The notes under the pieces: model-generated
Seen by the model: the letters and a program-made list of their open reading frames with translations, nothing else
Told to the model about the DNA's origin: nothing
The model's database searches: none
Shown here: positions 17,730 through 49,629 of the stretch, in pieces
How positions within the stretch are numbered: the stretch's first letter is position 1
Layout of the letters: each line of letters starts with the position of its first letter
Made by a program: the position numbers and the translations under genes
IMG/VR virus record: IMGVR_UViG_3300029286_000018
Coordinates: 1-64,000 of that record
Source: a virus
Reading direction: 5' to 3' (one strand)
Length of the DNA: 64,000 nucleotides

Positions 17730-17739
17730 AGGAGATATT

Positions 17740-19681: not shown

Positions 19682-19745
19682 TTTTTGAAATAATAATATT
19701 TTGTTTTTGTCGAAATGAGATAACTTTGCCGATATAGTAATTACT

Positions 19746-27295: not shown

Positions 27296-28136
27296 AGACA
27301 GCAAGAAAATTTTTGTAGAGTTAGCAAAGACTCCTTATAAACAGAGCCAAGGGCTTATGTTTAGAAAAGAACTTCAACCTGATTCTGGTATGTTGTTTGT
27401 TTTTGATGATCCAAAACCATTAAGCTTTTGGGGAATGAATACTTTTATCCCTCTTGATATTGCTTTCATTGATGAGCATGGAATTATAAAAGATTTAAAA
27501 AGAATTAAGCAGCATGATTTAACAAGCGTAAAATCAAGTTGTCCTTGCAAGTTTGCTCTTGAAGTTTCTGATGGATGGTTTAAGGAAAATGGATTCGTAG
27601 TAGGTGATTTCATGGAATCTTTGCTTAAAGATTCTGATGGTCATATTATGCTTATAAAAAATAAACTTAGTCAAAAAACTGCACAAGTTGTTCCTGATGA
27701 AGAGTTAGAAGATGTTGAGCCAGAAGTTGTCAGTCCAGAAAAAGAAGAAGAACCAATTCTGGAAAAAGAAAAACCTGAAGCTACACCTACTCCAGTCGCC
27801 CCTGAAGAAGTAGCTCCAGTCGCTGCACCTGAATTAGAAGAACCTGGTATATCTGTCCCAAAATTTGATAGCATTTTTGACGCATTGAGGTGGTCTATGG
27901 CTAATCTGCAAGTTATGAGAGTTACCTATAAAACAGTAAAAGGTCATGTCGTTACTAAGGACATTGAGCCTCATAAAGTATTTTTCTCTAGATCTAGCAA
28001 GAGACAGGTTTTAAAAGCATATGATGAAACGGCAGACCATGCCAGTCAATATATTATTATGAATATTGTTTCATATGGTTTTCCTGGAAGGAATTTTGCT
28101 CCTAGAAGCATATTATTATCACGGAGACTTATATGA
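27282..28136 (+). CDS. DUF192 domain + acidic linker + WYL-like domain protein
   Basis: ELA.TP....GLMFR..L....GMLFVF, FW..NT.IPLDIAF, ALEV (DUF192); C-terminal VTY....G.....IEP.......L.AYD (WYL-like). Confidence 0.7.
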   Translation: MKSIKDSKKIFVELAKTPYKQSQGLMFRKELQPDSGMLFVFDDPKPLSFWGMNTFIPLDIAFIDEHGIIKDLKRIKQHDLTSVKSSCPCKFALEVSDGWFKENGFVVGDFMESLLKDSDGHIMLIKNKLSQKTAQVVPDEELEDVEPEVVSPEKEEEPILEKEKPEATPTPVAPEEVAPVAAPELEEPGISVPKFDSIFDALRWSMANLQVMRVTYKTVKGHVVTKDIEPHKVFFSRSSKRQVLKAYDETADHASQYIIMNIVSYGFPGRNFAPRSILLSRRLI

Positions 28137-28735
28137 TAGAATTAATTAAAGAAATTATTTTAACAGCACAAAGCTTAGAGGTTAAGGGTCTAAGTAAGTA
28201 TGCAGATAAACTAGATTCTGCTGCAGAGTCTTTGACTTTGGTCAAGCAGGCTCAATACGATGGCATTCAAGGCTATTGGATTCGCAATGGGCGTTGTTTT
28301 GATAATTGCTATAGAGAAAAACGCACCAATCAAGCTAAGAAAAGCGCTCAAGAGGTATGGACTGAATGTCACAGTGAGTGGCTTGATTCTCTTATGAAAA
28401 ACAGTTCTGACTGGGATAAGTATGCTTCAGACTCTTCTGGAGAAATGCGAAAAGTGGCATCTGTAAAAACAGCTCAAGTTTCTGATGAAGTTATGAATAG
28501 TGAAATTATGGAAAAAGTTACTAATGGCATTTCTATTTCTGATGCTGTTCCAATGACTGTGGCAGAGCGCATGTTTAGCGTTCCCTGGAAATTGGCTCAA
28601 GTTAGCAATGATGTGCTTGATATTGCGCGTGAAGTTTCCGACAAGGATCCAGCAGTGTCTGAACGTCTTTACGGGTTTGCGGATAGAATTAGGCAAGAAA
28701 GTCTTAATAATTATAAAGACTGCCTGATATCATAA
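28133..28735 (+). CDS. Hypothetical protein, putative head protein
   Basis: Five KxA[SQ] motifs (KQAQ, KYAS, KVAS, KTAQ, KLAQ). Confidence 0.6.
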   Translation: MIELIKEIILTAQSLEVKGLSKYADKLDSAAESLTLVKQAQYDGIQGYWIRNGRCFDNCYREKRTNQAKKSAQEVWTECHSEWLDSLMKNSSDWDKYASDSSGEMRKVASVKTAQVSDEVMNSEIMEKVTNGISISDAVPMTVAERMFSVPWKLAQVSNDVLDIAREVSDKDPAVSERLYGFADRIRQESLNNYKDCLIS

Positions 28736-30103: not shown

Positions 30104-30744
30104 TTTTTAAGAATAAAGACTTCAGTATATCTTCTTTGTTTGGAGAAAAGCCTCAACCGAAAGAGTCAAAACCAGTTGACCCAGCTATTTTGGAGGCTTT
30201 TTTTAGAAAGCAAACTAGCAAGTCTGCTGGTGGGGATCAAGGTGGATTAATATCCAAAAGTATATTGAGATCATCTTCATCGCAGGACTTAAATGTTCCT
30301 GGAGAAGCTTTTGTTGGTAAAAGTTCTGCTCGTTCAATTTTTTCTCCACAGTCTACCCCAATTGAAAAATCTGTTGATCGTTCAGTTTCTCGTATCTCTG
30401 AGTTTCTTCCTGATATTAAGCAAGAAGTCCCATCAGATGTTGCTGATGACTTGATGAAGTTCAAGGGTAATTTTTCTGAAGCTTCAAAAGCTGCAGGTTC
30501 TCACGGTTCTGTGCGCACAGATCGAATAAGTATGTTTGACGAGGGTGCTTTTGATAGATTGCAGAAACCAGAGACAGAGAAGAAAGCAGCAAAGGTTGTT
30601 GAAGAAAAGAAAATTTCTAAGGCGATGAGAGCGACAGATATTGCTAACTCAATGTGGTCAAAACTTTCTGATGACAATTCAGCAAAAGGCAAGATGTCGA
30701 GAGAGCGTGCAATCGATAAATTATTTGGAGACAATAATGCCTAA
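30100..30744 (+). CDS. Hypothetical protein
   Basis: ATGA-coupled intact ORF, Ser/Lys-rich. Confidence 0.6.
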   Translation: MIFKNKDFSISSLFGEKPQPKESKPVDPAILEAFFRKQTSKSAGGDQGGLISKSILRSSSSQDLNVPGEAFVGKSSARSIFSPQSTPIEKSVDRSVSRISEFLPDIKQEVPSDVADDLMKFKGNFSEASKAAGSHGSVRTDRISMFDEGAFDRLQKPETEKKAAKVVEEKKISKAMRATDIANSMWSKLSDDNSAKGKMSRERAIDKLFGDNNA

Positions 30745-31795
30745 ATTTAATCTTTTTAAGTTGGCACAAGCACAGCCTGGCCAGTTTAATATGAGCCAGC
30801 CAGTGATTCAAGGAGCCATGGAATCTGTTACTCCAGAGGGAACTACTGAGGAGTCGCTAGAAGATGGTGCTGGTATGGGCATGGAAGGTGATACTCAGCT
30901 GTTGATGAATCCCGGTCAGTCTGATGTTGACTCAGAAATAGAGACTTTGTCAGTTCCACTATTTGAAAACCATGTGCAGATGTATGAAAAGTTAAAATCT
31001 ATGTCTACCGGAGATACAAAATCTTCGATGAACGCTGCATGGAATAATTATTTTGCACCTACTATCGGTGAAACTGAAATTGGCGATGATTTTAAATCTG
31101 GTTTGGGACAATTTTTTGACACTGATCCTGATTCTGAAGATGCAGTTGATATTGCTAATCGCCTTTATGACATGTACGCCAAGATTCATCCTTCCCATAA
31201 GGGTTCAGAGGCTGAGCAAGAGACAATTAATGAAGAGTTAGATGTAGCTACTGCTAGTACATTAGATGTCATCAAAATGGCTCAAAAAATGGCTAAGTCA
31301 CAAGTGCAAAAAATGGCAACAGGATCTTTTAATCTTAAGAAGATTGCTCAGCATAAGGGACTTGACTCTTCTAATGTTATTACTGGTCCATCTCAGACAT
31401 CTTTAAGCCCATTCACTCGTGACATTCAGGGCGGTATGCACTTAATCGAGCAGAACAAAGGGTTTGGACTTAAGATTGATGACATTCTTGACATTAACTT
31501 TGAAGCAATTTGGCGTGGTAATATTATGGATAAATATAATCAGCCATATCGTGACGAACAAGGTAATTATGTTGGTGGTTATATAAATAGAAGATTTGAA
31601 GTTGATCGTAATATTCCAGTTGGTAATAATTTGCAGCTTCTTCCAGGAACCCGTCATCGTCCATGGATGCCAGAATATTCTATTCTTGAGTCTCGCATGG
31701 AGTCTGCTAGAGGAAATAAGGATAAGTTAATTAATCCTTTTACTTTTGCAAAAGTCTCTATTGGCCCATTTAACTTAAAAAAAAAGAGCAAGTAA
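30737..31795 (+). CDS. Putative head protein upstream of portal; ends in slippery A-run
   Basis: GGAG RBS before ATG 30737 (MPKFNLFKLAQ); FNLKKIAQ internal; ends TTA AAA AAA AAG AGC AAG TAA. Confidence 0.7.
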   Translation: MPKFNLFKLAQAQPGQFNMSQPVIQGAMESVTPEGTTEESLEDGAGMGMEGDTQLLMNPGQSDVDSEIETLSVPLFENHVQMYEKLKSMSTGDTKSSMNAAWNNYFAPTIGETEIGDDFKSGLGQFFDTDPDSEDAVDIANRLYDMYAKIHPSHKGSEAEQETINEELDVATASTLDVIKMAQKMAKSQVQKMATGSFNLKKIAQHKGLDSSNVITGPSQTSLSPFTRDIQGGMHLIEQNKGFGLKIDDILDINFEAIWRGNIMDKYNQPYRDEQGNYVGGYINRRFEVDRNIPVGNNLQLLPGTRHRPWMPEYSILESRMESARGNKDKLINPFTFAKVSIGPFNLKKKSK

Positions 31796-34319: not shown

Positions 34320-34733
34320 ATGATAAAAATAGCTGGTAAGCGTATAAAAGATCGCCATATTAATTGGCAAGAGCACTACTCGGAAAGAACAGAACCTTTG
34401 CGTGATCGTTATTGGTCTGAATTAGGCACTGGTTCTTATCGTAGATGGGAAGGTCATGACTATACAACGAATAGTGATTATTACGTTGTTTGCAGTCCTG
34501 CTCAAACTAAATACGGAGAAAAATCTTACTTTGCTGGTATTAAAAAATTACCACCCGCTTCGGTTCGTGAAACTACAAAAGTGTATTCTCCATATGGTAA
34601 GTACTTTAGTAGCATGGCTGCTGCTTTGAGTTTTTTAAAAGACAAGTATGGTGTACCTTGGCCAAAAGATCAAGTGAATTACATGTCAGCGCAATTGCAA
34701 AATATTGAAATCCCTAGATTCGTGAAGGCATAA
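34320..34733 (+). CDS. Hypothetical protein, putative head protein
   Basis: Starts MIKIAG; lies between portal and protease. Confidence 0.6.
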   Translation: MIKIAGKRIKDRHINWQEHYSERTEPLRDRYWSELGTGSYRRWEGHDYTTNSDYYVVCSPAQTKYGEKSYFAGIKKLPPASVRETTKVYSPYGKYFSSMAAALSFLKDKYGVPWPKDQVNYMSAQLQNIEIPRFVKA

Positions 34734-34739
34734 AATATT

Positions 34740-37700
34740 ATGGATAAATTTACAATAACTACTGAACGTCAAATTGAACCTTTGAACATTCCACAGCATT
34801 GGGATGAAATAAATATTTCTCCTATTACAAAATATGCATCAAATGATAAGGTCTTTGAGGAGAGAGTGAAGGGCATGGATTTAGGCGGCTTTAACATTGT
34901 AAAAGAAGTCAAAGAACATCCAGAGCATTTATTTGTAAAAGTATTTGCAATTAAGAAAGATGAAGTAAATGATAATGGAGATTACTTTAGTGAAAAAGAA
35001 CTAAAGAAAGCTGCAAAAACATTTATTGGTGTTCCTGTATTTGTCAATCATCAGAACGATGATATTGAAAAAGCAAGAGGAAAAGTTGTACATGCTTGGT
35101 GGGATGATGAGCGTGGTGGTATTTATACAATTAATATGGTTGATAAAGTTGCATATCCACGTCTTGCAAGAGGAATAGAGGCTGGATACGTCACAGGTAG
35201 CTCCATGGGGTGTTCAGTCAAGTATAGCGCCTGTTCAGTTTGCCATACTCGTGCAGCAAATGCAAAAGAATATTGCTCACATATTAAGGAAAGAAAAAAG
35301 AAGAATTTTACTGGAGAACATGAGTGTCTTTATCACAAAAGCGCTAACTCTGGTGATGAACCATGTCCTGTTTGTGGTTCTGAAAAAGGAAAGAAGAAAT
35401 TAAACAAGTACGCAAGTCAACAGATATTTGAGCATAATTATGATGTTAAGTTTATTGAGGATAGCTTTGTAGTTAATCCTGCATGTCATGATTGCTTGGT
35501 AAGTGACATCATAAATCCAAGCGCTTTGTTTAAGAAAGTTGCCGACATTAGAGAGACTATTTCAAAGCTTGGTTTTGTAGTCGAATCAGATTCATCTTTT
35601 GGCATAGAATGCTCTACTGGCCAGTGCGGCTTACACAAGGCTGCTGGTAAGCAGGAGTTAAATGAACTTAATGATGCCATGAATCAATTGGAGCGTGTCG
35701 CTCGTTCAATGATGGCTCAGAAAAATAAGGTTAGCTTAGAGTATGTTTCTGATATTATTAAAGTTACTGCAGATATACAGAAAATATCAGATGAATTAGT
35801 TGAAATGGGTTATGCAGTATTACCAAGTCCAACTTCTGAGCAGGTTGCTTATGGAACAAACGTGCAGGCAAGTCCTGTTGTTGGTCCATCTTCTGCAGTA
35901 CAAACACCTATTTCAGCTATGCCAAAGCCGTCTTCAGGAGCTCAGCCCTCTGCTCAGCCATCATTAGCAATGCCACCACAACAGGCTGCTCCGATGATGA
36001 AAACTGTTCCCGGCACAGTGTCTCCACAGGTTCAGGATCTTGGTGATGACATTGGACGAGTAACAAGACCAAATTTTGTTCCAGTTCGTGCAGATTCCGC
36101 AAAGGATTTTATTAAAATATCTAATAGTATAATGAACAGGCTCTCGGAAATTGCGGGAGTTTTAAATATTAATGGAGAGTTTATGTCTGAAAATTCAGGA
36201 TACAAATACACACAAGGTGATGATACAATTGTAATTTCCTCTGATGTAGATGGGGAAATTCACGTTGCTCATCTGAACCAGGATCGCTTGCTCAAGTGGG
36301 CAAGCATAGATTCATTTGATAATGAAACTCAAAGTTTAATAACTCACAATCCGCAACAAGCCGCTCGTAAAATACTTTCTTCATATATGAACAACAATAA
36401 TTCAGAGGAGTCAATTATTTCCATGGAAAACAACAATAAGATCGCACAGTCTCAGACTAATGATGTACACGAAGTTACCACCGAATCCCAACTCAATAGT
36501 GTTAAGGGTCTTGGCAGGCGTCAAGGAGAAGCCCCCACTGGTACTACTGAGAGCAAAGAGCAGCTTGGCTCTGGCAAGGTTTACTTCAAGGACGTGAACA
36601 GCGAGTCTCCCACCGCTCATCGTGGAACCTATGATTCCATCGTTGAGTCTACTCTGAATTCTAAGACTGGTGGATACATGGCGAGATGGGGTTCTTTCCC
36701 AGAGGTCATTACTGAGGCTCAATGGGACGACTTGTCTCGCGAAGTTAAGGCCAACATTCCTTCTGACTGGACATCCGTTGCTAAGGAAGGTCAGCTCGAT
36801 GCCTTGCGCTCCACATTCAGCTGGTCAGAGCCAACAGCAACCACAGAATCACAACTGTCAGGAAAGATGAAAAAGAAGGCTTCTGCCAAGGATCTTATTA
36901 AGGTCGCTCAGTCTGCAGTTGCTGATGCCATGGCATTCTATGGTGTTGGAATTGAAGACATTCAGAAGAGTGTCCAATTTGTGAACTCAGATTCTTCTCG
37001 TAAGTTTAAGTCAAAGGTTATGGTTGCACTAAATGCTGCTCCATGGGCAGTTAACGCACGTAAGGCTTACAATAGTCGTCTTGCTTCATTCTCTAAGGTT
37101 GCTTCAGAAGTTTATGGACTTGAGCCAGTTGATGCAGTTCTTGCAGCAATTGGAGACAGTCTCGACAACAATGGCGCAGAGGACGTTCTCGCTGCAGTTA
37201 CATTTGTTGCAGGCAACAAGTTGGCAATGCAGCAGGCAGAAGATTTGGCAGTTGAAAGATTTGAGTCTACTGTTTCTGGAAATAGTAATGAAGAAGACAT
37301 GTTCCGTCAGGCCTTCAGTGAGCTTTCTCTCCCAGAGGATGGTCTTATTAAGGTTTGTATGAGCGCTCAAGATGATTTGGGAATGGATGTTTCAGGAGAC
37401 AAGTCATTCATTGATGCAGTTCATAAGTTTGCGCAGAATATGGTCAGCGAAAATCTTGGCAAGCAAGTTGAAGTCGTTCCAGTCGCAGTTGATGTTGATG
37501 AGGAAAACGGACTTGTTGAAGCTACTTGCAAGCTTGCATCTAAACTCACTGATCAGGAAAAACAAGCTTTTAGCAAGTGGGCATCTTCCGCTGAGGAAGC
37601 AACCAAGCAGGCTGAAGTAATAGAAGAAGTCGAAGAAACCAAGTTTGAGAATAAGCGTGCTTCCTTGATTAAGGAACTTAATCAACTAGAGAAGCGTGCT

Positions 37701-40541
37701 CAGCTTGCTGGTGGACAGATGCCAGCTAATTTAAATCCTGCTGGCATGGGAATGGGCATGCAGCTTCCAGGTGGAGCAGCTCCCGCTGGTGGTCCAGGCA
37801 TTGAAGCTCTCACTGGTGAACTACCAATGGATGCTGGCGGTGCTGGTGCTGATCCTCTTGCTGGAGGAGATATGGGCATGGAAGACGCTGAATCTAAGCC
37901 AAAGCCACCAGGTGCAGTTTGCATTGTTTGCGGAGGAAATGACGTTGATGTCCAGAGTGGCAAATCGAAGTGCAACGGCCCAGGCTGCGGCATGAACTAC
38001 ACCATCAAGATTGTCCCAGATGCATCCTTGCTTGACAAGATTACAGACGGAGATGTTGATCAAGAAGATGTTACAGCTGGTCCAGAATCCCCAGAGAAGG
38101 GCCTTGGCGGCTATGGTCCAATGGGCGCTCTTGACGCTGGCGCTGCAGGAATGCCAGCTCCAGCAGGAATGCCAGCAGGCGGAATGGCAGTTGCTGCATC
38201 TGCCAAGATCAGTGCTGATACCATGAAGAAGTTTGCATCTCGCCATGCTTTTGGATCAATCAGTCCAATCACTGGCGCAAGTAACACTATTCGTCTTGAC
38301 CAGGAACACTGGCAGTGCCTAGATAGTGGTCAGATCTACCGTGTTCGTTTGGCTGCAAAGCAAAATGATTCAAAGCACGTTTATGCTCAATGGGAATGGG
38401 TTCCATTAGTAAAGAAGGCTTCTTGCGCTCCATGTCAGCGTCGTAAGAACGCGATTGTCAGCGCTCTTTCTTCAGTTGGAATTTCTGAGAGCAAGTTTGA
38501 CGGTATGTCTATGACTGACAAGGCAAATGCTTTGAATTCAATTAATGAGCGTGGATTGCTCGGCACAGTCAAGGAGGCTTCCTCCGATGGTGTGCGCAGC
38601 TTCTTTAAGCAGGCATTCACTGTTCACGGTGAATTCCCAATGGAAATGTGCATACACAAGCTTGCCAATCGCTATGGAGATAACGCTCTTGCTTTGAGCG
38701 GTCCATGCGAAGGTAAGAATCTTGCTGAGTGCGTATGCAGTTCTTTGTCCGATGAGAAGGTTTACACTACCGACTTGGCTCGCAAAGTAGCTTCTGCATG
38801 GTCTGAGCGTGATGGAATGTATGAATGCGTCGAAGACTTCGTGCGCGATGGCCTTTCATTGAATAAGTCTGCTCAGGCATGTGAAGATCTGAAGACCAAA
38901 TACATCAGTGCAGAGGAAATGTTTGCAGAAACTATTTCTAATGATGCAGTTGTTAAGGCTGCTCAGCTTGAAAATGAGGAGCCTATCGAAGAAGAAGATC
39001 CATTTGACTCATCAGATGAAATGTCTGATTCTTCTGAGGACGCTGATGTCGATTTTGAAGACATGTCAGACGATTCTGAAGGTATGGAAGATGACGATTC
39101 TGAAATGGACGGCGACGATGATTCGGGTATGCCATCTGGATACCACGATGAATCTGAAGGTGGAGATGAAGACGAAAGCGAAGGCGATGAAGATTTTGAA
39201 GTTGAGATCAGCCTAGACAGTGGTTCTGCTGATGAAATTGAACACGGTCTTTCTCAGGTCCCTGAAGAAGAGGGTGGAGAAGAGATGGATTTGGATATGG
39301 AGATGTCAGAAGAAGAGATGGACGGCGAGTCCGATCATTCAGACGAGTCTGGTCATTCAGGTCATTCAGCTCATGAGGAGGGCAGCATGGAAGAATCAGG
39401 TATGGTTAGCGAGGCAGACCTTTATAAGGAGTCTCCAAAGCAGGCAAATGAACTTGAAAAGTTTGAAAAAGAAGCTCATTCATTGCGTCGTGGTCGCATA
39501 GTCGGCGTCAACAAGCTAAACATTGATGTTGACAGCATCCGTGCAGCCCTCAATAAGAAGGCTGGCAAGGTTGAGCAGACCAGTGCCCAAGATACCGTGA
39601 AGGGTATTGCTAACGGCAAGCCTCACTCAGAGAGCACTCAGGAAGGTTTCGATGCAGAGACTCCAGACGTTCCGACACAGAACGGAAAAGTCCTGAGTAA
39701 TGAGCATGGCGATGGATTTGATGCTGATATGCCAGAGATCCCATCCGGTAAGGGTAAGTTCCCAAATGAGACCAATGAAGGCGAAATGCAGGACACTGTA
39801 AGTGGTGGAACAGCTGGTCAGGGTTCAAACCATACTGGTAAATACCGCAAGGCTTCCAATATGTTTGACCAGGCACTTGCCAAACTCGCCAAGGACATGA
39901 ACCTTGAAATCGGAGCAGCTCAAAATGATCCAGACATCGCACCAATTGCTGATGGTAAGGCTCATCCAGATGCTGCAACTGAGGAAGGCTTCAGCGCAGA
40001 TTCGCCAGACGTTCCAGACAATGGTGGAAAGCCACTGAGCTCTGAGCACGGCGAAGGATTCAAGGTTGATGGTCCATCAATCCCAGCTGGTGACGGCAAG
40101 ATGGGGCATGAATCCAATGAAGGTGAAAAACAAAATGGAATCACTGGTGGTGGGCTCGGTCAGGGCAATCACACCCAGTATAAGTCTAAGAAGGCCAATA
40201 GTGCCAATAAAGAGGTTGCATTAAAGCTTGCAGCAAAAATGGTTGAAGGAGGCTTAATTAAGGCCGACCAGATGCCAGGCAAGATTTCGGAGTTGCAGAG
40301 ATACGAGGTATCTCAGCTCCGTGACCTCGAGAAGGCGATGTTTAATCGCCCGAGTGCTATGAAGGGCCTGAAGATTGCGTCGAGTGGGGTAGAGCAGCCA
40401 CTCGTCATCAGCGAAGCAAGCAGTCACAAAAATGCTTCGGTTGATCTAAAAGGTAAAATTGCTTCTCTGTTCCGCTTGCAACAGCAGGTCGAAGCGGCAG
40501 ATGAGAGCGAGGCTGCTAAGTTACGTAGTGCGTTTAAATGA
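34740..40541 (+). CDS. Prohead maturation protease / scaffold polyprotein (1933 aa)
   Basis: N-terminal NDNGD.F...EL...TF.G.P.FVNH, G.V, SMG, CxxC..CxH, F.E.S.V..PA resemble HK97/herpes-fold prohead proteases; followed by acidic, Gly/Pro, Cys-rich and coiled-coil segments; directly upstream of capsid genes. Confidence 0.8.
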   Translation: MDKFTITTERQIEPLNIPQHWDEINISPITKYASNDKVFEERVKGMDLGGFNIVKEVKEHPEHLFVKVFAIKKDEVNDNGDYFSEKELKKAAKTFIGVPVFVNHQNDDIEKARGKVVHAWWDDERGGIYTINMVDKVAYPRLARGIEAGYVTGSSMGCSVKYSACSVCHTRAANAKEYCSHIKERKKKNFTGEHECLYHKSANSGDEPCPVCGSEKGKKKLNKYASQQIFEHNYDVKFIEDSFVVNPACHDCLVSDIINPSALFKKVADIRETISKLGFVVESDSSFGIECSTGQCGLHKAAGKQELNELNDAMNQLERVARSMMAQKNKVSLEYVSDIIKVTADIQKISDELVEMGYAVLPSPTSEQVAYGTNVQASPVVGPSSAVQTPISAMPKPSSGAQPSAQPSLAMPPQQAAPMMKTVPGTVSPQVQDLGDDIGRVTRPNFVPVRADSAKDFIKISNSIMNRLSEIAGVLNINGEFMSENSGYKYTQGDDTIVISSDVDGEIHVAHLNQDRLLKWASIDSFDNETQSLITHNPQQAARKILSSYMNNNNSEESIISMENNNKIAQSQTNDVHEVTTESQLNSVKGLGRRQGEAPTGTTESKEQLGSGKVYFKDVNSESPTAHRGTYDSIVESTLNSKTGGYMARWGSFPEVITEAQWDDLSREVKANIPSDWTSVAKEGQLDALRSTFSWSEPTATTESQLSGKMKKKASAKDLIKVAQSAVADAMAFYGVGIEDIQKSVQFVNSDSSRKFKSKVMVALNAAPWAVNARKAYNSRLASFSKVASEVYGLEPVDAVLAAIGDSLDNNGAEDVLAAVTFVAGNKLAMQQAEDLAVERFESTVSGNSNEEDMFRQAFSELSLPEDGLIKVCMSAQDDLGMDVSGDKSFIDAVHKFAQNMVSENLGKQVEVVPVAVDVDEENGLVEATCKLASKLTDQEKQAFSKWASSAEEATKQAEVIEEVEETKFENKRASLIKELNQLEKRAQLAGGQMPANLNPAGMGMGMQLPGGAAPAGGPGIEALTGELPMDAGGAGADPLAGGDMGMEDAESKPKPPGAVCIVCGGNDVDVQSGKSKCNGPGCGMNYTIKIVPDASLLDKITDGDVDQEDVTAGPESPEKGLGGYGPMGALDAGAAGMPAPAGMPAGGMAVAASAKISADTMKKFASRHAFGSISPITGASNTIRLDQEHWQCLDSGQIYRVRLAAKQNDSKHVYAQWEWVPLVKKASCAPCQRRKNAIVSALSSVGISESKFDGMSMTDKANALNSINERGLLGTVKEASSDGVRSFFKQAFTVHGEFPMEMCIHKLANRYGDNALALSGPCEGKNLAECVCSSLSDEKVYTTDLARKVASAWSERDGMYECVEDFVRDGLSLNKSAQACEDLKTKYISAEEMFAETISNDAVVKAAQLENEEPIEEEDPFDSSDEMSDSSEDADVDFEDMSDDSEGMEDDDSEMDGDDDSGMPSGYHDESEGGDEDESEGDEDFEVEISLDSGSADEIEHGLSQVPEEEGGEEMDLDMEMSEEEMDGESDHSDESGHSGHSAHEEGSMEESGMVSEADLYKESPKQANELEKFEKEAHSLRRGRIVGVNKLNIDVDSIRAALNKKAGKVEQTSAQDTVKGIANGKPHSESTQEGFDAETPDVPTQNGKVLSNEHGDGFDADMPEIPSGKGKFPNETNEGEMQDTVSGGTAGQGSNHTGKYRKASNMFDQALAKLAKDMNLEIGAAQNDPDIAPIADGKAHPDAATEEGFSADSPDVPDNGGKPLSSEHGEGFKVDGPSIPAGDGKMGHESNEGEKQNGITGGGLGQGNHTQYKSKKANSANKEVALKLAAKMVEGGLIKADQMPGKISELQRYEVSQLRDLEKAMFNRPSAMKGLKIASSGVEQPLVISEASSHKNASVDLKGKIASLFRLQQQVEAADESEAAKLRSAFK

Positions 40542-40575: not shown

Positions 40576-41151
40576 ATGGCTTTAATAGTATCATATCACA
40601 CAATAGCAACCCAGCTTCCAACAACTTCCACAACCATTGTTGAGGGCATGGGCGTTAAGTTCTCTGCTGTATCCGGTGCAGAGTCAAAGGTGGCCCTTGC
40701 TGATGCAACTACCTTCACTTTTGGTATCGCTGGCGATAGTTCAGTTTCAACTGGTCCAAACAAGCCCTACGGTGCTTCAGTTGTAGTGAACGGCGCTGGC
40801 GGAACTCGTGGAACTAGTAACCGTGTTTCTGACTTTTTCAATGAAACAGTTGGCTCAGGTAAGATCACAGTTTATACTGGTATTGGAGAATTTTACACTG
40901 ACCAATATAACACTAGTGGTTCATATACACCAGGCGCTAAGTTGTTTACCAACAGTGTTGGTAAGTTGACCAATACTGATGGTGGCGGTAACTCAATTGG
41001 TTTCACCATGGACGGCCCACGCGCTTATCCAAGCGGTGTTCCTGGCGTTGATGACGGTGGCGTTACTGGCGCAAACACGACTATTAACGGTAGCTTGTCT
41101 TTAGGTAGCTACCTTCGTTTCTACATGAACATTTCTGGTATAGATTTATGA
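40576..41151 (+). CDS. Head decoration / minor capsid protein
   Basis: AAGGAG RBS; position before MCP; G.AGD, SGKITVY...GEF.TDQY, G.KL....GKLT pattern. Confidence 0.65.
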   Translation: MALIVSYHTIATQLPTTSTTIVEGMGVKFSAVSGAESKVALADATTFTFGIAGDSSVSTGPNKPYGASVVVNGAGGTRGTSNRVSDFFNETVGSGKITVYTGIGEFYTDQYNTSGSYTPGAKLFTNSVGKLTNTDGGGNSIGFTMDGPRAYPSGVPGVDDGGVTGANTTINGSLSLGSYLRFYMNISGIDL

Positions 41152-41222: not shown

Positions 41223-42095
41223 ATGTCACTAAATAAAGATGGTTTGACCTATGATGAGAAAGAGGCAGTAATTGCCCAAGCTCTCGCTACAGAAGAGGGC
41301 CGTACTGCTCTCGCACAGGCAATGGTGGAGCCAATCCGCCGTTCTTTGGAGTATCAAGCTGTTGGTCGTAAGTTGCTCATGGTTGACGAGCTCCCACAAG
41401 GTGCTCTTCCTCGCTATGAGCGCGACGTAGCTTCTACCGCCACTGTCATTGCTCGTCAGGGTGCAGTCCCTGACCAGATTCAGCAGGGCGAAGAAGTCCT
41501 TGTTCCAACATTCGAGATTGCTGCTCACCCAACAATCCGTTTGTCTGAAATCAAGGCTCGTCGTTTCTACATTGTTGACCGCGCCCAGATCAAGGCAAAG
41601 GAAGCCATTCAGAAGGAAGAAGATCGCAATATCTTCAACGCTCTGATTGCTGCTGCCGATACCCGTAATGATCAGGTCGTTGGCAACAGTGGTGATCTTA
41701 CTACTGATTCACTTAACGTTGCATACCGTTTGATTGAGACCCACGATCTTGTCGCAAGCAAGGTTGTTGCTCACCCACTTCAGTATGCTCGCTTCCGCGT
41801 TTTCGGCAAGACTTTCTACGATGAGGCTACAACTCGTGAAATCCTCACCACTGGTCTCTATGGTCACCTCTGGACCGCTGACATTCACGTCAGCTCCCAG
41901 CTTGACCCTCAGACCATATTGGTGTGCGCTTCTCCCGACACCGTTGGAGCCTTCCCAATCCGCCAGGACATCACTGTCCTCCCAGCGGACGATCCGAAGA
42001 AGCTTCGCCTCGGTTGGGTAATTTATGAAGAGATCGGCATCGTTGTAATGAACGATTACGCTCTCTCGAAGATTGAAGTTTACCGCACAAGCTAA
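41223..42095 (+). CDS. Major capsid protein (HK97 fold)
   Basis: GR.ALAQAM.EPIR..L.YQ.VGRKLL.VDELPQG...RY..D, P.FEIA..P.I...EI..RRF..VDRAQ, GWV.YE.IG; high-expression codon bias; AAGGA RBS. Confidence 0.88.
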   Translation: MSLNKDGLTYDEKEAVIAQALATEEGRTALAQAMVEPIRRSLEYQAVGRKLLMVDELPQGALPRYERDVASTATVIARQGAVPDQIQQGEEVLVPTFEIAAHPTIRLSEIKARRFYIVDRAQIKAKEAIQKEEDRNIFNALIAAADTRNDQVVGNSGDLTTDSLNVAYRLIETHDLVASKVVAHPLQYARFRVFGKTFYDEATTREILTTGLYGHLWTADIHVSSQLDPQTILVCASPDTVGAFPIRQDITVLPADDPKKLRLGWVIYEEIGIVVMNDYALSKIEVYRTS

Positions 42096-42124: not shown

Positions 42125-42162
42125 GCGACCCGCTCTCCGAAAGGAGGGCGGGTTGTTTTTTT
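42125..42162 (+). terminator. Rho-independent terminator after the major capsid gene
   Basis: GCGACCCGCTCTCC-GAAA-GGAGGGCGGGTTGT stem-loop followed by a T-run. Confidence 0.9.
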
Positions 42163-42216: not shown

Positions 42217-43866
42217 ATGAGTGAACGCAAGATATTTAACTTTGAATCAAAAATATTAGATAATGAAACTCTTAGTAAATTTGGATATTATCCAGAATCT
42301 ATTGGAAGATCATCTGCAAAGTTTGTAGTTGCTATATGTAGATTTTGTGGATATCAAATGGATATAAGGAAGGGCTTTTATAATAAATCTGGATCGGCTT
42401 GTCATAAAGATTGTAAGCTAAAAGAAATGAGTCTTTCTGGGTCCCCATTTTGTCTTGATAAAACAAGGGAAAAAGCAAAGGTCACAAACTTAAAAAAATG
42501 GGGTAATGAATGTCCTCAAAAAACAGAAGTGATTCGCAATAAGATAAGTGTGTCAAAAAAAGATGCAGAGTATCAAGCAAATTTTAAAGAAACCATGAGA
42601 TCAAGGCACGGTGTTGATAATCCTGCTAAGATGTCCGATCATGCAGAAAAAGTTAAGAATACTTCATTAATTAAGTATCAAAAAGAACATTTTAATTTAA
42701 ATGAATCAGTTCAAGCAAAAAGACAAAACACAAACATTGAAAAGTATGGATGTGCTTTTCCTACGCAGAATGACTCTGTAAAACAAAAGATAAAAGATTC
42801 TTGGAAACAAGTTGTTTCACAAGACGATGAGAAATATTTTATGTTTAATTTTGTTTCTAACTCTAAAGAGCTATGGAACGACATTGAGGCAGGTATGTCT
42901 TTATCTGACATATCTCAGCATTATCAAATTGATCGTATTGCCTTAAATAAAGTTCTTTTAAGTCAGCAATTTAAAAATAAATACCAAAAGATTTATTCGT
43001 ATCCAAAACATCAAAAACAAAAAGAAATATATGATTACTTAAAATCGATTGGTCTATCAGATATTGTTATGGATGATAAAGGTGTAATTGGTTTAGAACT
43101 AGATATTTATTCTCCGTCAAAAAAGATGGCAATAGAATTTAACGGTTCATATTGGCACTCAGAAGCAATCTTAGATCCTGATATTGCTAGAAAAAAACAT
43201 ATCAATAAGACAAAGATGTGTGGAAAAATTGGTGTTAGGCTAATTCATATTTTTGAAAAACAATGGGAAGAAAGAAAGGCTCAATACGAATCCTTTTTGA
43301 CATCAGCGTTTGGATTGAATCTGGTTAATCTACATGGAAGATCTTGTTCTATTGATTTTAGTCCTGAGTACTCATTTATGGAAAATTATCACATACAGGG
43401 CAAGCCTAGAGGCGTTGAATTTTGGGTAAACTTAAAGTATGATGGAGAAACGGTTGGGTCAATGTCTTTATCATCTCATCATAGACAGAATGGATCTGTA
43501 AATGAGGCTGTTTTAAGTAGAATGGCATTTAAGGCAGGGGTTACTATTCGCGGCGGAGCCTCTAGGATGCTTTCCTATGCAATAAAGTTGGCAAAAGCAA
43601 ACGGATTTGATAGTATTATTACTTGGTCAGATGAAATGATTACAAGTGGGAATGTATATCAAAAAATGGGATTTATATCAGATAAAACTTATGGTCCAGA
43701 TTATTTTTATTGGGATTTAAATAATAATCAGTATCGTTCAAAACAGTCTCAGAAAAAATCTGCAACTGGATGCCCTAAGGATAAGACAGAACGAGACTGG
43801 TGTTATGAAAATAATTTATATAGAATGTGGGACTGTGGTAAAAGACGTTGGAGGATAAAGGTTTAA
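42217..43866 (+). CDS. Hef-like free-standing endonuclease (KYG repeats + Vsr/DUF559-like nuclease + Mom-like GNAT domain)
   Basis: Repeats T...K[YW]G...P; ELDIY....AIEFNG.YWHS...H..K...C...G..LIHIFE..W; C-terminal H.QG, LSR, GGAS, SD...G.VY...GF, DCG. Confidence 0.75.
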   Translation: MSERKIFNFESKILDNETLSKFGYYPESIGRSSAKFVVAICRFCGYQMDIRKGFYNKSGSACHKDCKLKEMSLSGSPFCLDKTREKAKVTNLKKWGNECPQKTEVIRNKISVSKKDAEYQANFKETMRSRHGVDNPAKMSDHAEKVKNTSLIKYQKEHFNLNESVQAKRQNTNIEKYGCAFPTQNDSVKQKIKDSWKQVVSQDDEKYFMFNFVSNSKELWNDIEAGMSLSDISQHYQIDRIALNKVLLSQQFKNKYQKIYSYPKHQKQKEIYDYLKSIGLSDIVMDDKGVIGLELDIYSPSKKMAIEFNGSYWHSEAILDPDIARKKHINKTKMCGKIGVRLIHIFEKQWEERKAQYESFLTSAFGLNLVNLHGRSCSIDFSPEYSFMENYHIQGKPRGVEFWVNLKYDGETVGSMSLSSHHRQNGSVNEAVLSRMAFKAGVTIRGGASRMLSYAIKLAKANGFDSIITWSDEMITSGNVYQKMGFISDKTYGPDYFYWDLNNNQYRSKQSQKKSATGCPKDKTERDWCYENNLYRMWDCGKRRWRIKV

Positions 43867-43915: not shown

Positions 43916-45481
43916 ATGAATTGGTATAAGTTCGCTGCAAAGATATCATCATCTATTTCTCCTACTGCAAGTGAAGAAGCAATATTTAAAGTAATTAGAG
44001 CTGGCCGAGACGCATACGCTCCAGGTGTGCAGCTTCGAATTGCTGGTGGTTGGGTACGTGACAGGCTGCTTGGTAGCGTTTCCGATGATATTGATATCGC
44101 GGTAAGCGGTGGAGACGGCAATGCTGTAGCTGAAGCAATTAGGCGCTATGATGTTGAAAACACTGGTGGTAAGCACACTAAAGATCCTTATGCAGTGAGC
44201 TTAGAAAAGACTCAAGCTGGTGATAAGAAAAGCAGCGCAGGTCTTCGAGTGGGTGCTATTGATATAAATGGCGTCAAAATAGAATTTGTACCAATGCGTA
44301 CTGAAGTTTATAGTCAAGGAAGTAGAATTCCAGGGATAACAGCCACTGATGACCCCAAAGAAGACGTGAAGCGTAGAGATTTGACGATTAACGCAATTTA
44401 TTACAATATTGATACAGGCAAGGTTGAGGATTATGCTGGTGGCGTGAGCGACTTGGAAAAAGGTGTTCTTCGAACTCCTGTCAACCCCGTTGAAACACTG
44501 AAGGAAGATCCCTTGCGTGCACTTCGAGCATTGCGTTTTCTTTCTCAAATGCATGGTTTTGAATTGGATGAATCTTTAGTTGAAGCACTAAAGCACCCAG
44601 AGGTTCATAAGGCATATCTTGAAAAAGTTGCCCCTGAGCGAGCCAGAAAAGAAATAGAAAAACTTGCACTTGGAAATAGGCCAGCCGAAGCTATTAGACA
44701 TTTCTTTTCCAGCGGTCTATACTTACCTGTTTTTCATCATGATAAACTTTATGGATTTAAGCCAATACATATGGACCAGAATAATCCAAAGCATCAATAC
44801 AATCTTCTTGAGCACACTGTTCACGTAGTAAAGAATTTGAACGATATGTTATTGGAGTCTGGTGTTTCCAAGAATGAAAGATTGGTTGCTGTGCTTTCTG
44901 CTATATTTCATGATTTTGGCAAAATGGATCCAGATTTAGTTCGTCCAAGCAAGTCAATGCCAGGTGCTTCTTCATATCCTGGTCATGAGAATGTATCTGC
45001 TGAATTAGCTGTTGATATATTAAAGCGTCTTGGTTTTGGATCTGAAAGAGATCTTGTAGCCAAAGTTGTTAAGGAGCATATGCGCCCTCATGGTGAAATG
45101 CATAGTCCAAAATCAATTGGCAAATTTTTACGTGATTTTGATGATCTTCCATCTGGTGACGATACAAAACCTCGTCTTTGGTGGCTAACTTTTATGCATG
45201 CTATTGCAGATTCTATGAGTAAGGGTGGCATGGACTATCATGAAGACGTGAAGGGCAAGCACGATCAAATTAAGACAATTGAGCAGTTCATAGAAGAGCG
45301 TTCCAAGATTGGTTCAAAACCATTGTTAAATGGTAAGGAAATTATGGACATTTTCCCAGACAAAAATCCTAAGACAGGCTTTATAGCAGATATGCAAAAA
45401 GCACTACTTGATGCTCAAGATTCTGGGCAAGTAAAAGATAAAGATGCTGCAAAACGGTTGCTTCAATCTTTATTCTCTTAA
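43916..45481 (+). CDS. cca: tRNA nucleotidyltransferase (CCA-adding enzyme, class II) with HD domain
   Basis: AGGWVRD.LLG..SDDIDI, R.E.Y...SR.P loop, DV.RRDLTINA, EDPLR.LRA.RF, ER...E..K, HT, HDFGK, GHE, LNG..I; poly(A) polymerase G[RK]RF signature not seen. Confidence 0.9.
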   Translation: MNWYKFAAKISSSISPTASEEAIFKVIRAGRDAYAPGVQLRIAGGWVRDRLLGSVSDDIDIAVSGGDGNAVAEAIRRYDVENTGGKHTKDPYAVSLEKTQAGDKKSSAGLRVGAIDINGVKIEFVPMRTEVYSQGSRIPGITATDDPKEDVKRRDLTINAIYYNIDTGKVEDYAGGVSDLEKGVLRTPVNPVETLKEDPLRALRALRFLSQMHGFELDESLVEALKHPEVHKAYLEKVAPERARKEIEKLALGNRPAEAIRHFFSSGLYLPVFHHDKLYGFKPIHMDQNNPKHQYNLLEHTVHVVKNLNDMLLESGVSKNERLVAVLSAIFHDFGKMDPDLVRPSKSMPGASSYPGHENVSAELAVDILKRLGFGSERDLVAKVVKEHMRPHGEMHSPKSIGKFLRDFDDLPSGDDTKPRLWWLTFMHAIADSMSKGGMDYHEDVKGKHDQIKTIEQFIEERSKIGSKPLLNGKEIMDIFPDKNPKTGFIADMQKALLDAQDSGQVKDKDAAKRLLQSLFS

Positions 45482-45513: not shown

Positions 45514-46071
45514 TTAAACAACAGTGCTATCTATGAGTGCAACTGGAGAGAATCCATCGTTGCACTCTCCGCACACAAGAAGTTTATTGCCAAACATAAA
45601 TTTCTTAAATGCGATTGGCTGTTGTGTTGTTGTTACTACCGCTAATGATTTATTTGTATCTAATAGCCATGTAAACCCTGAAAAGTCTGTAAAGCTTGAT
45701 TGGGGTACCGTTGAAGTTTGATTAAGCTTTTGCAGGCTTAGTATGTAGTCATTTCTTTCGTTTCCTGCCACTAAGACGGAGCATCCATTAAGAGTAGTTT
45801 TCTCATTATTTGACGTAGAAAATGTTCCGTGTAACCCAGAAATTGTTGTTACGTCAATTATTCTTATTGCAGAACGTCCATTGGACATTCTGTGCGCCAC
45901 CATTGGTATTCCTCCAATATAATATCTATCCATGTCATATACATGTGATGTAAATTCTGTACATGTTAGCTTTTTGTAGTTCTTGGTTGTACTATCCAAA
46001 GTAAATACCTTAGAAGAGCCCAGCATCATGAATTTTTCTTCATAACTGGATGTGTCGTATGTGTAAGCCAT
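45514..46071 (-). CDS. Hypothetical protein (only convincing minus-strand gene)
   Basis: Fills the gap between cca and the GT gene; likely start MAYTYD. Confidence 0.6.
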   Translation of the reverse strand: MAYTYDTSSYEEKFMMLGSSKVFTLDSTTKNYKKLTCTEFTSHVYDMDRYYIGGIPMVAHRMSNGRSAIRIIDVTTISGLHGTFSTSNNEKTTLNGCSVLVAGNERNDYILSLQKLNQTSTVPQSSFTDFSGFTWLLDTNKSLAVVTTTQQPIAFKKFMFGNKLLVCGECNDGFSPVALIDSTVV

Positions 46072-46118
46072 ATAATTTATTAAGATAAAACAAACCATTA
46101 ACCTCTCGATAAATACTT

Positions 46119-47477
46119 ATGAAGATTGAAAATAGGACTGGACATTCTGTCAATATTTCAGATATAGAAAGAAATTTTGCTCCTAAAGAAGAAGTATCAT
46201 TTTATGAAATATCTAAACAAGAGCTTTTAAAAAGTATGTCTCTCCGAAATCTTATTAGGTCTTCTAGGTTCTATCCAATTGAAATTGATAATGAGTCATC
46301 ATTGGAAGTAAATTTAAAAAAAGAAAGCGACATTGTCTTATCTATGTCATCATCAGAAAAAGAGCAAAAAAATTCTGGAGTTATTTTAAGAGGTCAATTT
46401 TTGGATTATAGTGGTTATGCTAAAGTGAATCGCAATTTAGCAGCCGTTATTAAGAAAAATAAGATACCAATTTCTATTAATGCCGTTGATTCTGCACATC
46501 CTAGATTGATAGGGTCTGATTTGGTTCTTAGCTCAAGCTTTACGTATACTAATAGTTCATTTGGTGATGTTGTTATTGATAGTGTTGTCCCTTCGTTTGA
46601 CTCTGGTCGTGGTAGGAAGAAATCCATTCTTTACACAACAGTAGAGGCGTATACTGTGCCTGACAGCTTTTCTAAAATATTTGATCAATATGATGAAATA
46701 TGGACAACTTCTAATTTTTGTAAAACTGTTATTTCTGGCAAGACTAATAAGCCAGTGCATGTAGTTCCAGGAATCGTTGATTTTGAAAACTATACAGCTT
46801 CAGGTGAAAAATTTGACCTCCATGGCAAGGCAAAGTCATTTAAATTTATAAGTGTTTTTAATTGGAATCATCGTAAGGGTGCAGATGCACTTATTAGGGC
46901 ATATTGTCAGGCGTTTAGCGGAACTGATGATGTTTCTCTTATATTGGTCTGTAGGAAAAGGCGTGTTTCAGGTCCAGCTCGGGGGGTAAAGGACGAGGTT
47001 GAAAAAGAAATAGCAAATGTCAAAATGGCCAACCCTCCACACATTGTACGTTTAACAAAAGAGATTAATGAGATACAGTTGGCTTCTTTGTATCGTAGTT
47101 GTGATGCGTTTGTCTTGCCTACTCGTGGAGAGGGCTACGGCTTGCCTTATTTGGAAGCTGGCTTGTGTGGCATACCTGTAATTGGCACAAAAGTTTCTGC
47201 AGTTCAAGATATCTTATCAGAAGACACAAGTCTGCTTATTGATATAGATGGTTTTAGAAAAGTGCCAGAAAATGCCACTGGTTGTTATTTTTGGGATGGA
47301 CAGATGATGGCTGATTTAACTTCTAAAGATTTTATAAATAGGCTAGCAGAGGGCATGAGGGATATGGTTAATAATTATCACAAGTATGCCGAAAAAAATA
47401 AAGCATTTCAGAATTTTATTTACACAAAGTGTTCATCACATGCTGTATTTAATACCGTAAAGGACCTATTACCTTGA
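46119..47477 (+). CDS. GT-B glycosyltransferase (family 4-like) with N-terminal extension
   Basis: SGYA...R, DEIW.TS.F, RKG.D.LI.A...AF...DDV.L, AFVLPTRGEGYGLP.LEA (E-x7-E). Confidence 0.85.
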   Translation: MKIENRTGHSVNISDIERNFAPKEEVSFYEISKQELLKSMSLRNLIRSSRFYPIEIDNESSLEVNLKKESDIVLSMSSSEKEQKNSGVILRGQFLDYSGYAKVNRNLAAVIKKNKIPISINAVDSAHPRLIGSDLVLSSSFTYTNSSFGDVVIDSVVPSFDSGRGRKKSILYTTVEAYTVPDSFSKIFDQYDEIWTTSNFCKTVISGKTNKPVHVVPGIVDFENYTASGEKFDLHGKAKSFKFISVFNWNHRKGADALIRAYCQAFSGTDDVSLILVCRKRRVSGPARGVKDEVEKEIANVKMANPPHIVRLTKEINEIQLASLYRSCDAFVLPTRGEGYGLPYLEAGLCGIPVIGTKVSAVQDILSEDTSLLIDIDGFRKVPENATGCYFWDGQMMADLTSKDFINRLAEGMRDMVNNYHKYAEKNKAFQNFIYTKCSSHAVFNTVKDLLP

Positions 47478-48092: not shown

Positions 48093-48806
48093 ATGAAAAA
48101 AATATTACTATCATTGCCCCAGACTGAGTGGTCTTGTTTTTTGGCTTCGCATACACAGGGAGTCATGCGTAAATTTGTTGATGGCCCTGTATCTTTTGAC
48201 TTGCTTGAAAAAAACGTCATGGATAGTTTGACCTTTCCACATGTCGTTGGAATTCATTCTTGTGTTGAAATGTGTAGTCTTAATCAACCTTACGATATGG
48301 TAGTAAATTTTGATACTGATCCCATGCTTGCGGAATATTTTAATAGCAAGTACGAAAATGTAGTGAATATGCAAGCTGCTATATACGGGAATGAAAATAA
48401 ATCTATTTGGTCGTCTATTTCTGATGCCTTTCAGGTTCAGTGTGAGTTTCCTATTTTTCAATTTTCTTTTTTGAATAAGACTCGCAATAATAGATCGGAA
48501 TCTGGCGTGGCTATTAAAAATGATAGTTTGCGCATGCATATTAAAAACGCATTTTTTGCAGACGACAACAGGCTTTGGCATATCCCTGTAAGAATAAATC
48601 TTATTAAAAGATATGATGAGTGCAACACTGCAAAAAATATCGTGACTGATGATATATTTTGTGCATTAAGTGCTTGTCATATGGGCAAGGATGTTATATT
48701 TTTAAAAACCAATAGCGCAGTCCCTAATATAGCTGTTGCAAATAAAATACATGTACAAAATGTTGATAATTTTATAAATGCAACTTATACTAAAAAAACT
48801 TCTTGA
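48093..48806 (+). CDS. Hypothetical protein, possibly degenerate GT9-like fold
   Basis: YD.VVN.D and IVTDD....LSA..MGK.V resemble eroded GT9 motifs. Confidence 0.45.
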   Translation: MKKILLSLPQTEWSCFLASHTQGVMRKFVDGPVSFDLLEKNVMDSLTFPHVVGIHSCVEMCSLNQPYDMVVNFDTDPMLAEYFNSKYENVVNMQAAIYGNENKSIWSSISDAFQVQCEFPIFQFSFLNKTRNNRSESGVAIKNDSLRMHIKNAFFADDNRLWHIPVRINLIKRYDECNTAKNIVTDDIFCALSACHMGKDVIFLKTNSAVPNIAVANKIHVQNVDNFINATYTKKTS

Positions 48807-49629
48807 TAAGAAAAAAGCAGTTAAGCAAATAAAAAGTGCTGTACATTATTTGCCAACTAATTTTGATTTTAATATACCAAATGTTAATCCAACAAATATA
48901 AAGATTGCAATTCTTGACACTGGAGTGCCTGGGCATACTGACATGGCCAATATTGGAAGCAAGACAGAAGTTACTTGTGTTGACTTACTTGCATCCAAGA
49001 CTAGCGTGTGGGACGAGCATGGTCACGCTACATTAGTGACTGGTATTTTGGCAAGTTCAAATCCAGGAGCAGTGATGGGTATGGCTCCATCTGCGCGTTA
49101 CTATTTCTGCAAAGTCATGGACGACTTTGGAGACGGCGATACAAATAACTTAACTGCTGGAATTATATGGGCACTTTCTCACAATGTAGATATTATTTTG
49201 ATATGCGCAGGCTCTCCTATCTATGATAGGTATCTTGAAAAGATGGTTAAAAAAGCTTTTGATTTAGGATGCATCATCATTGCTTCTTCCGGCAAAGAAG
49301 TAACACGTGGAAATAGAATTTTATATCCAGCAGCATTTGACGGAGTAGTGTGTTGTAGCTCTACAAAAGATAAAAAATGTGAATACGATAGTAAGAAAAA
49401 TAGACTGAATGTTGACATAGATGCATCGTCGGTGTGGTCAGTTTTTCCACCAGATATTTTTATGAAATCATCTGGCAGTAGCATGGCTGCGGCAATTATG
49501 TGTGGCTGTGCGATCAACTTTATTGGCGACTGTCGGATGAGGAATATTCCCATTAATGGTGTAGGAGAATTTATGGAAAATTTTGCGAAGACTTTCCGGG
49601 CAGAAGACAATGGCAGCAATAAGCTTTAA
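48778..49629 (+). CDS. Subtilisin-like S8 serine protease
   Basis: IAILDTG (Asp), HGHAT...GI (His), G.AP.A, YPAAF, SGSSMAA (Ser). Confidence 0.85.
   Translation: MQLILKKLLDKKKAVKQIKSAVHYLPTNFDFNIPNVNPTNIKIAILDTGVPGHTDMANIGSKTEVTCVDLLASKTSVWDEHGHATLVTGILASSNPGAVMGMAPSARYYFCKVMDDFGDGDTNNLTAGIIWALSHNVDIILICAGSPIYDRYLEKMVKKAFDLGCIIIASSGKEVTRGNRILYPAAFDGVVCCSSTKDKKCEYDSKKNRLNVDIDASSVWSVFPPDIFMKSSGSSMAAAIMCGCAINFIGDCRMRNIPINGVGEFMENFAKTFRAEDNGSNKL

Follow-up and report, generated by a model that had tools for sequence, protein, structure and literature searches.

A portable N-terminal tag on a megaphage CCA-type tRNA nucleotidyltransferase and its possible role as a capsid-loading signal

The gene analyzed here lies at 43916..45481 of a viral DNA window of 64,000 nucleotides, which comprises positions 1 to 64,000 of the 94-kb IMG/VR record IMGVR_UViG_3300029286_000018. 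Features of the window are on the plus strand unless stated otherwise. The open reading frame (ORF) encodes a 521-amino-acid (aa) protein beginning MNWYKFAAKISSS, identified as a CCA-type class II tRNA nucleotidyltransferase with an HD domain from the ORF itself, from Pfam, PHROG and NCBIfam (TIGR02692) matches, and from an AlphaFold2 model with fold matches in the PDB. At its N-terminus the protein carries a tag, MNWYKFAAKISS (43916..43951), in which an address-like NWYK precedes K-F-A (aa 5-7) and K-I-S (aa 9-11), both of them candidate cut motifs. Tag assignment was based on model confidence, on conservation and on other tagged ORFs; the same peptide is found on unrelated proteins of related megaphages and may direct its carriers into the phage head. 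The start codon of the ORF is secure, because merely six sense codons lie in frame upstream and relatives keep the same start.

Three Pfam domains were detected in the enzyme. The nucleotidyltransferase head domain (aa 40-186; 44033..44473; PF01743, PolyA_pol, E 1.8e-24) contains GGWVRD and the carboxylates D58/D60. The neck or RNA-binding domain (aa 214-273; 44555..44734; PF12627, PolyA_pol_RNAbd) has the EDPLR nucleotide-selection motif just upstream (aa 197-201), and the HD phosphohydrolase domain spans aa 298-393 (44807..45094; PF01966, E 3.8e-8). In an alignment of 25 homologs, the head-domain residues G44, G45, W46, R48, D49, D58 and D60 were invariant, as were R153, R154 and D155 of motif B, D198, P199, L200 and R201 of motif D, and the HD ligands H300, H332-D333, H357, H388 and D432. 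The PHROG call was tRNA nucleotidyltransferase (E 8e-45). The actinobacterial CCA enzyme model TIGR02692 aligned over its full length with 143.7 bits against a cut-off of 438.8, and since the protein stays below every NCBIfam equivalog cut-off, it belongs to a divergent viral branch. The AlphaFold2 model had a mean predicted local distance difference test (pLDDT) of 90.2 and a predicted template modeling score (pTM) of 0.87. The top Foldseek match in the PDB was the Arabidopsis CCA-adding enzyme 9kma (TM 0.70), further matches were Aquifex 3wfo-3wfs, 3h38 and 1miv, and the probability was 1.00 for all of them. Enzymes that add CCA, CC or A, and PcnB too, are about equally good matches in sequence and fold. 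Judged by its sequence and its predicted head-neck-body-tail fold, the ORF encodes the whole of a class II CCA-type tRNA nucleotidyltransferase, HD domain included, in agreement with the first-pass annotation of this DNA. The enzyme itself is ordinary, and by sequence its architecture is that of the CCA addition and repair enzymes, which rebuild and clean tRNA 3' ends. No tRNA genes were found in the 94-kb record.

The first-pass annotation had described a leader, MNWYKFAAK, ahead of the normal enzyme fold, and this description was confirmed. In the AlphaFold2 model aa 1-9 have a pLDDT below 50 and the first long helix begins at residue 18. The CCA family models begin aligning only at residues 14-40. 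Within this otherwise variable N-terminal stretch, M-N-W-Y-K are the five best-kept residues. On the evidence of the model, the first ~10 residues are an add-on outside the enzyme fold.

A survey of phage cca homologs for MNWY-K-x-A leaders had been proposed earlier, together with the question of which other enzymes carry them. Of the homologs retrieved, we examined 115 with a recognizable core, 51 short and 64 long forms (about 630-910 aa). NW[YF]K was present upstream of the catalytic core in 31 of the 51 short forms, and the leader also occurs on unrelated enzymes, as described below. In 49 of the 64 long forms the sequence M-x-x-N-W-[FY]-K-K-[VI]-K-[VI]-[SA] was found after the enzyme body and before a C-terminal module of ~100 aa; where the fusion partner is a GNAT domain, NWYK precedes it. 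A K-x-A/S motif, typically K-T/I-A-Q, was located 10-14 residues before the first CCA-domain helix in 60 of the 64 long forms, compared with 25% of background windows, a position that matches the K-x-A of the short forms. By sequence, the tag thus sits at module junctions of CCA fusion proteins. Since K-x-A has an equal distance from the same first helix in short and long forms, cutting there would give the same mature enzyme. The CCA family, with short forms bearing an N-terminal tag and long fusions bearing K-x-A-Q at the matching spot, therefore offers a specific argument for cleavage. At the protein level, the tag motif is kept at the fusion junctions and in CCA relatives that share about 40-80% identity. 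Untagged relatives were found in phage G, in Tunturi_5 and among P0029-P0035; the phage G enzyme has 431 aa, no HD domain was called in it, and it is weakly similar to the window's protein (31% identity over aa 110-274). A truncated tag forms the C-terminus of three proteins, L153 18152-21133 (minus strand), P0100 and P0101 (ending NWYKISR, NWYNYAK and NWYLRSK). Such a C-terminal copy cannot be an N-terminal leader, which points to a docking role.

We then asked how widely the tag is distributed. A back-translated MNWYKxA pattern was run against IMG/VR and ORFs of at least 45 aa were kept, which gave 73 distinct ORFs starting MNWYKxA. Codon use within the tag was mixed (AAC 43 and AAT 30; TAT 56 and TAC 17; AAA 50 and AAG 23). 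Synonymous codons thus vary freely, and selection therefore acts on the peptide. A role of the tag at the nucleotide level, as a translation or recombination element, was ruled out by the same variation. Shine-Dalgarno-like sequences stood at 23 of the 73 tagged genes (raw count). The residue after the A was Q in 28, S in 11 and N in 8 ORFs, together 47 of the 73. By Pfam, the tagged proteins included the ADP-ribosyltransferase of polyvalent proteins (ART-PolyVal), SLT transglycosylases, P-loop kinases and multi-helix-turn-helix (HTH) regulators, further DUF5661, glucose-6-phosphate dehydrogenase (G6PD), aldo/keto reductase, a DnaJ-domain protein and a PGDYG protein. Tagged genes were found in arrays of 3-10 at the IMG/VR loci L027, L038, L090 and L162. 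The window's own record (G000) covers about 23% of its genome; in four complete relatives of 461-548 kb (G001-G004) the exact tag was counted 1 to 10 times per genome, and the reversed control pattern 0 times. These sequence comparisons identify the tag as a portable peptide on unrelated proteins in a clade of 460-550 kb phage-G-like megaphages, made up of two parts, N-W-[YF]-K and K-x-A/S. The string MNWYK gave no relevant paper in the literature searched; the tag is new to that literature, and the enzyme itself is of known type. About 40 IMG/VR contigs from the tag scan (e.g. L003, L004, L010), mostly 16-45 kb long, have a common 19-codon frame, MNWYKPARSSPCLSSRHAA, which looks like a conserved non-tag element merely fitting the search pattern.

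These data bear on the plainest explanation of the locus, namely an ordinary cytoplasmic phage CCA enzyme that would mature or maintain phage and host tRNAs, with an N-terminus that is mainly the footprint of cassette recombination and has no sorting role. Phage CCA enzymes are indeed common (406 phage records match), untagged relatives exist, and the tagged genes stand in variable arrays of small accessory genes. However, the motif is conserved as protein in CCA relatives and at junctions, the free variation of its synonymous codons makes the nucleotide sequence a poor recombination substrate, and the head-specific K-x-A enrichment described next would be left unexplained. We regard this explanation as improbable.

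The first-pass annotation had compared the leader with a K-x-A leader of head proteins. In the window the head module runs in the order large terminase (TerL), portal, 137-aa protein, 1933-aa protein, 191-aa protein and major capsid protein (MCP). The MCP (41223..42095) shares 51.6% identity with gp27 of Bacillus phage G and 70-78% with its counterparts in the four complete phages of 461-548 kb. The 1933-aa protein (34740..40541) is a giant head protease-scaffold (PHROG 18299/2774) with a prohead-protease-like region at aa 47-193 and 19 K-hydrophobic-A sites, after most of which comes S or Q. Enrichment of K-[hydrophobic]-A was tested over the 71 called genes of the 94-kb record. It was found in 3 of the 71 genes only, all between TerL and MCP: a 200-aa head-module protein (28133..28735) with 4 sites observed and 0.41 expected, the gene called at 30641-31795 with 5 against 0.42, and the giant protein with 19 against 3.66, a number reached in 0 of 300 shuffles. 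The control motifs A-hydrophobic-K, R-hydrophobic-A and K-hydrophobic-S were flat. In the three proteins thus selected, K-x-A-[QSN] occurred 34 times against 3.3 expected (z 17, about 10-fold), compared with 23 against 20.8 in all other proteins. The giant protein was also aligned with its ortholog (73% identity) at L002, a locus with an MCP 97% identical and a CCA enzyme 78% identical to those of the window. Eighteen of the 19 sites were kept, compared with 44% of background tripeptides. K-x-A is thus specific to head-assembly proteins in this phage, and the CCA leader does carry it, as had been claimed.

Further proteins of the head module have related features. The 137-aa protein between portal and protease-scaffold (34320..34733) starts with a short K-x-A leader, MIKIA/G, with an A-G junction, and a second protein with a MIKIA-type K-x-A leader, here followed by R, lies at 24743-25177. 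The 191-aa protein (40576..41151) occupies the position of the phage G decoration protein gp26; it has an ortholog in L002 and no family match. The portal ORF (32008-34260, 750 aa) has a C-terminal DUF559/MTES_1575 endonuclease-like region at aa ~580-722. Since the L002 portal ortholog aligns over aa 49-491 only, the portal C-terminus may be a fused mobile endonuclease. In the large terminase ORF (20948-24025, 1025 aa) family matches cover just aa ~440-984, which leaves an unexplained N-terminal extension of ~440 aa.

The pre-portal protein P0121 (30737..31795), one of the three proteins enriched in K-hydrophobic-A, starts MPKFNLFKLAQAQ and also contains FNLKKIAQ and, at its C-terminus, FNLKKKSK. 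It has three FNLxK repeats, of which the last is the C-terminus, and its N-terminus, MPKFNLFKLAQAQPG, resembles the Prp-cleaved scaffold leader of Staphylococcus phage 80alpha (KFNLQFF'ADQ). The tag could accordingly be read as a leader that a host protease removes in the manner of Prp and L27, as in 80alpha, for control of folding or assembly and not for cargo loading. The motif of Prp and L27 is MLxx(D/N)LQ(F/L)F'A(S/H)KK (PMC9405229). The window's FNL variant, MPKFNLFKLA followed by QAQ, is similar to the 80alpha scaffold leader, MEENKLKFNLQFF'ADQ, and to the L27 leader, MLKLNLQFF'ASKK; NWYKFA is in register with NLQFFA, and the Prp motif, too, occurs on non-homologous phage proteins. Yet the tag lacks the conserved Q and F/L before the scissile bond, the corresponding tag position being variable, and the known Prp leaders are on structural proteins and not on dozens of enzymes. 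Moreover, no Prp homolog (PF04327) is encoded in G000 or in five relatives, a search that covered phage genomes only. A phage-encoded Prp protease was dropped as a candidate on this basis, and we consider removal of the tag by a Prp-like host protease rather unlikely.

The position of the CCA gene was examined as well. The first-pass annotation had placed it just after the capsid gene and behind a candidate late promoter. An intrinsic terminator (42125..42156; 14-bp stem with 9 G-C pairs and a T run), kept in L002, follows the capsid gene. In the window, a homing-endonuclease-like gene with a GNAT domain (42217..43866, 549 aa) is inserted between this terminator and the CCA gene. L002 lacks this insertion, and its CCA gene starts about 30 nt past the same terminator. 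In that locus, to judge from the sequence, the CCA gene is most likely transcribed by read-through of the late capsid transcript. The claimed position therefore applies to L002, directly after the MCP terminator, and neither to the window nor to G001-G003, in which the long-form CCA gene is far from the MCP gene. The capsid-adjacent position is thus confined to the window's close kin. G003 has four other tagged genes just downstream of its MCP gene, and G004 has one. The late promoter was not supported: a promoter consensus scan gave 18 sites compared with 17.1 in shuffles, which is chance level, and no common upstream motif was seen by eye.

Taken together, the tag on unrelated proteins, the protease-type motif that is also present in core proteins, and the overlap of the cargo with injected proteins lead us to favor, at somewhat better than even chances, the reading that the tag is an address-plus-cut signal which works like the capsid-targeting sequence (CTS) of phage T4 and makes the CCA enzyme head cargo. 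Tagged ART-PolyVal, SLT transglycosylases and P-loop kinases match cargo types for which there are packaged or injected precedents. For T4 Alt and the polyvalent proteins, packaging and injection are either known or have been argued (PMC9026906, PMC5512222). The tag would dock the CCA enzyme in the core of the assembling prohead. The prohead protease would then cut at K-x-A, after A7 or after S11, and free the enzyme inside the capsid. Finally, the enzyme would enter the next host with the DNA and work on tRNA ends ahead of phage gene expression. We infer every step of this chain, from docking and cleavage to packaging and injection, as well as the substrate in vivo. The S8 subtilase-like protease encoded at 48778-49629, 3 kb downstream of the CCA gene and kept in L002 and L162, is a second candidate for a tag-processing protease.

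Several observations weigh against this cargo reading. In the window, a terminator and a mobile gene stand between the CCA gene and the MCP gene, and in G001-G003 the distance between the two genes is 175-280 kb. The CCA neighborhood in these three genomes looks replication-like by the N-termini of its ORFs (clamp-loader-, RuvC- and J-domain-like motifs by eye). G6PD, aldo/keto reductase, the DnaJ-domain protein and the HTH regulators are odd cargo. The residue after K-F-A in the CCA enzyme is A, and not Q, S or N. The x position of the tag is often K, Q or R, whereas scaffold sites favor a hydrophobic residue; sites with a non-hydrophobic x are still enriched in the three head proteins (14 against 2.2). 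The K-x-A-[QSN] figures come from three head proteins that had been selected in one motif test before a related motif was applied to them. Finally, the exact tag is absent from the cultured phages examined (Bacillus phage G, Tunturiibacter phage Tunturi_5 and LR745208), so that the published particle proteomics of phage G does not bear on the cargo reading. Tag-like leaders, MSKKLNWLDKFAQ, MSRLKKLA and MSRLRKLA, stand at the start of a few ORFs of phage G (a leader-bearing ORF is e.g. 94824-96083).

Some of these points would fit a signal that has nothing to do with the capsid and serves docking or degradation. It could be an N-degron of the ClpX type, or a peptide that times or localizes many enzymes in the infected cell by way of some other hub or compartment of the phage, and the CCA enzyme would act only in the producing cell. 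The tagged G6PD, reductase, DnaJ protein and HTH regulators look cytoplasmic, and the CCA gene lies in a non-structural region in three complete genomes. N-W-Y-K-F also fits loosely the ClpX N-motif-1 pattern, which Flynn et al. 2003 are reported to have described as polar, hydrophobic, hydrophobic, basic, hydrophobic. Classes of ClpX N-degrons exist (PMC12723719), phage G encodes ClpP and ClpX, and G004 has two ClpP genes, but ClpP is absent from three of the four complete relatives. The tag is furthermore kept at internal junctions and at a few C-termini, where an N-degron cannot work, and its second half is the motif enriched only in head-assembly proteins. We therefore think a signal of this kind unlikely, though less so than the two explanations weighed above.

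Returning to the tag as a head-loading signal, we put a broader proposal at roughly even odds. In phage-G-like megaphages, NW[YF]K...K-x-A would be a portable tag for loading and release, the injected proteome could be read directly from the tagged genes of a genome, and the phage would deliver a ready-made tRNA 3'-end repair enzyme that keeps translation alive against host tRNA-end damage. If this is true, sequence alone would suffice to list the effectors that uncultivated megaphages inject, and the repair of tRNA ends would rank with ADP-ribosylation and wall digestion among the earliest events of infection. In addition, a peptide of 8-12 residues would be at hand for loading foreign proteins into very large capsids.

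The surroundings of the CCA gene contain further genes of interest. The gene at 45514-46098 (minus strand, 194 aa, no family match) is the sole minus-strand gene called in the 94-kb record, and L002 has it in the same orientation (60% identity). It is followed by a family 4 glycosyltransferase (46119-47477), which Pfam also matches to 'GT4 in conflict systems'. This glycosyltransferase is found within ~10 kb of the CCA gene in L162 and L164-L166; that it stays near CCA genes only 33-35% identical suggests a conserved linkage. In L163, an untagged polynucleotide kinase-phosphatase (17977-20007; AAA_33 and HAD_PNKP) is located about 8 kb downstream of a long-form CCA gene. Next to it is a small ORF containing a KYPRTFH motif, an arrangement that hints at a set of genes for tRNA repair.

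The phage enzyme was compared with the HD-bearing CCA addition and repair enzymes of the E. coli Cca type, of actinobacteria (TIGR02692) and of Aquifex (3wfo-3wfs). It has the same head-neck-body and HD architecture, and the GGxVRD, DxD, RRD, EDxxR and H..HD..D residues are all present. Unlike these enzymes, it has an extra N-terminal tag and scores under the NCBIfam equivalog cut-offs.

Encapsulin cargo-loading peptides offer a parallel for the tag, as short terminal peptides, at either terminus, that dock enzymes in a shell of HK97 fold. However, these peptides remain uncleaved, the shell is without DNA, and there is no sequence relation to the megaphage tag. Closer in form are the Prp-cleaved leaders of L27 and of the 80alpha capsid and scaffold proteins (PMC5744158, PMC9405229). 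There, too, a short leader ending in hydrophobic-A stands on non-homologous proteins, and the window's FNL variant is like KFNLQFF'A. The megaphage tags differ in having no LQ(F/L)F core and a variable position before the A, and in standing on dozens of enzymes in place of structural proteins.

The repertoire of tagged proteins is similar to that of the polyvalent proteins of phages and conjugative elements (Iyer et al. 2017, PMC5512222), with ART-PolyVal, lytic transglycosylase, kinases and RNA-acting enzymes in both. Both also involve multi-enzyme polypeptides, which in the polyvalent proteins are packaged and processed into units (PMC5512222). In contrast, the megaphage units are mostly separate genes, each of them tagged. 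Polyvalent proteins use an embedded zincin-like peptidase, whereas processing in the megaphages would be by the prohead protease, with a short peptide as its signal. In phage G (NC_023719.1), the head-maturation protease gp19 (16840-17742) has 5 K-hydrophobic-A sites against 0.79 expected, a weaker signal than that of the window.

The closest likeness is to the CTS of T4, which is found on the internal proteins IPI-III and on Alt (Mullaney and Black 1996; reviewed in PMC9026906). T4-related phages swap cargo behind a constant CTS leader (PMC9026906). As in T4, a peptide of ~10 residues at the N-terminus is common to unrelated proteins, here 73 ORFs, and is bipartite, with targeting (putative in the megaphages) first and the processing determinants at the end. 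Both end in a prohead protease motif, presumed in the megaphages, that is also frequent in core or scaffold proteins, here K-x-A-[QSN] by motif counts, and in both the cargo includes an ADP-ribosyltransferase. The differences are equally clear. The megaphage tag also occurs internally at fusion junctions and sometimes at the C-terminus. It belongs to a G-like lineage with a protease-scaffold fusion, and it is known from sequence only. MKTYQEFIAE and MNWYKxAQ have no sequence similarity, and the cut motif is L/I-x-E in T4 compared with a putative K-x-A in the megaphages. The tag would thus be an analogue of the T4 CTS and not a homologue.

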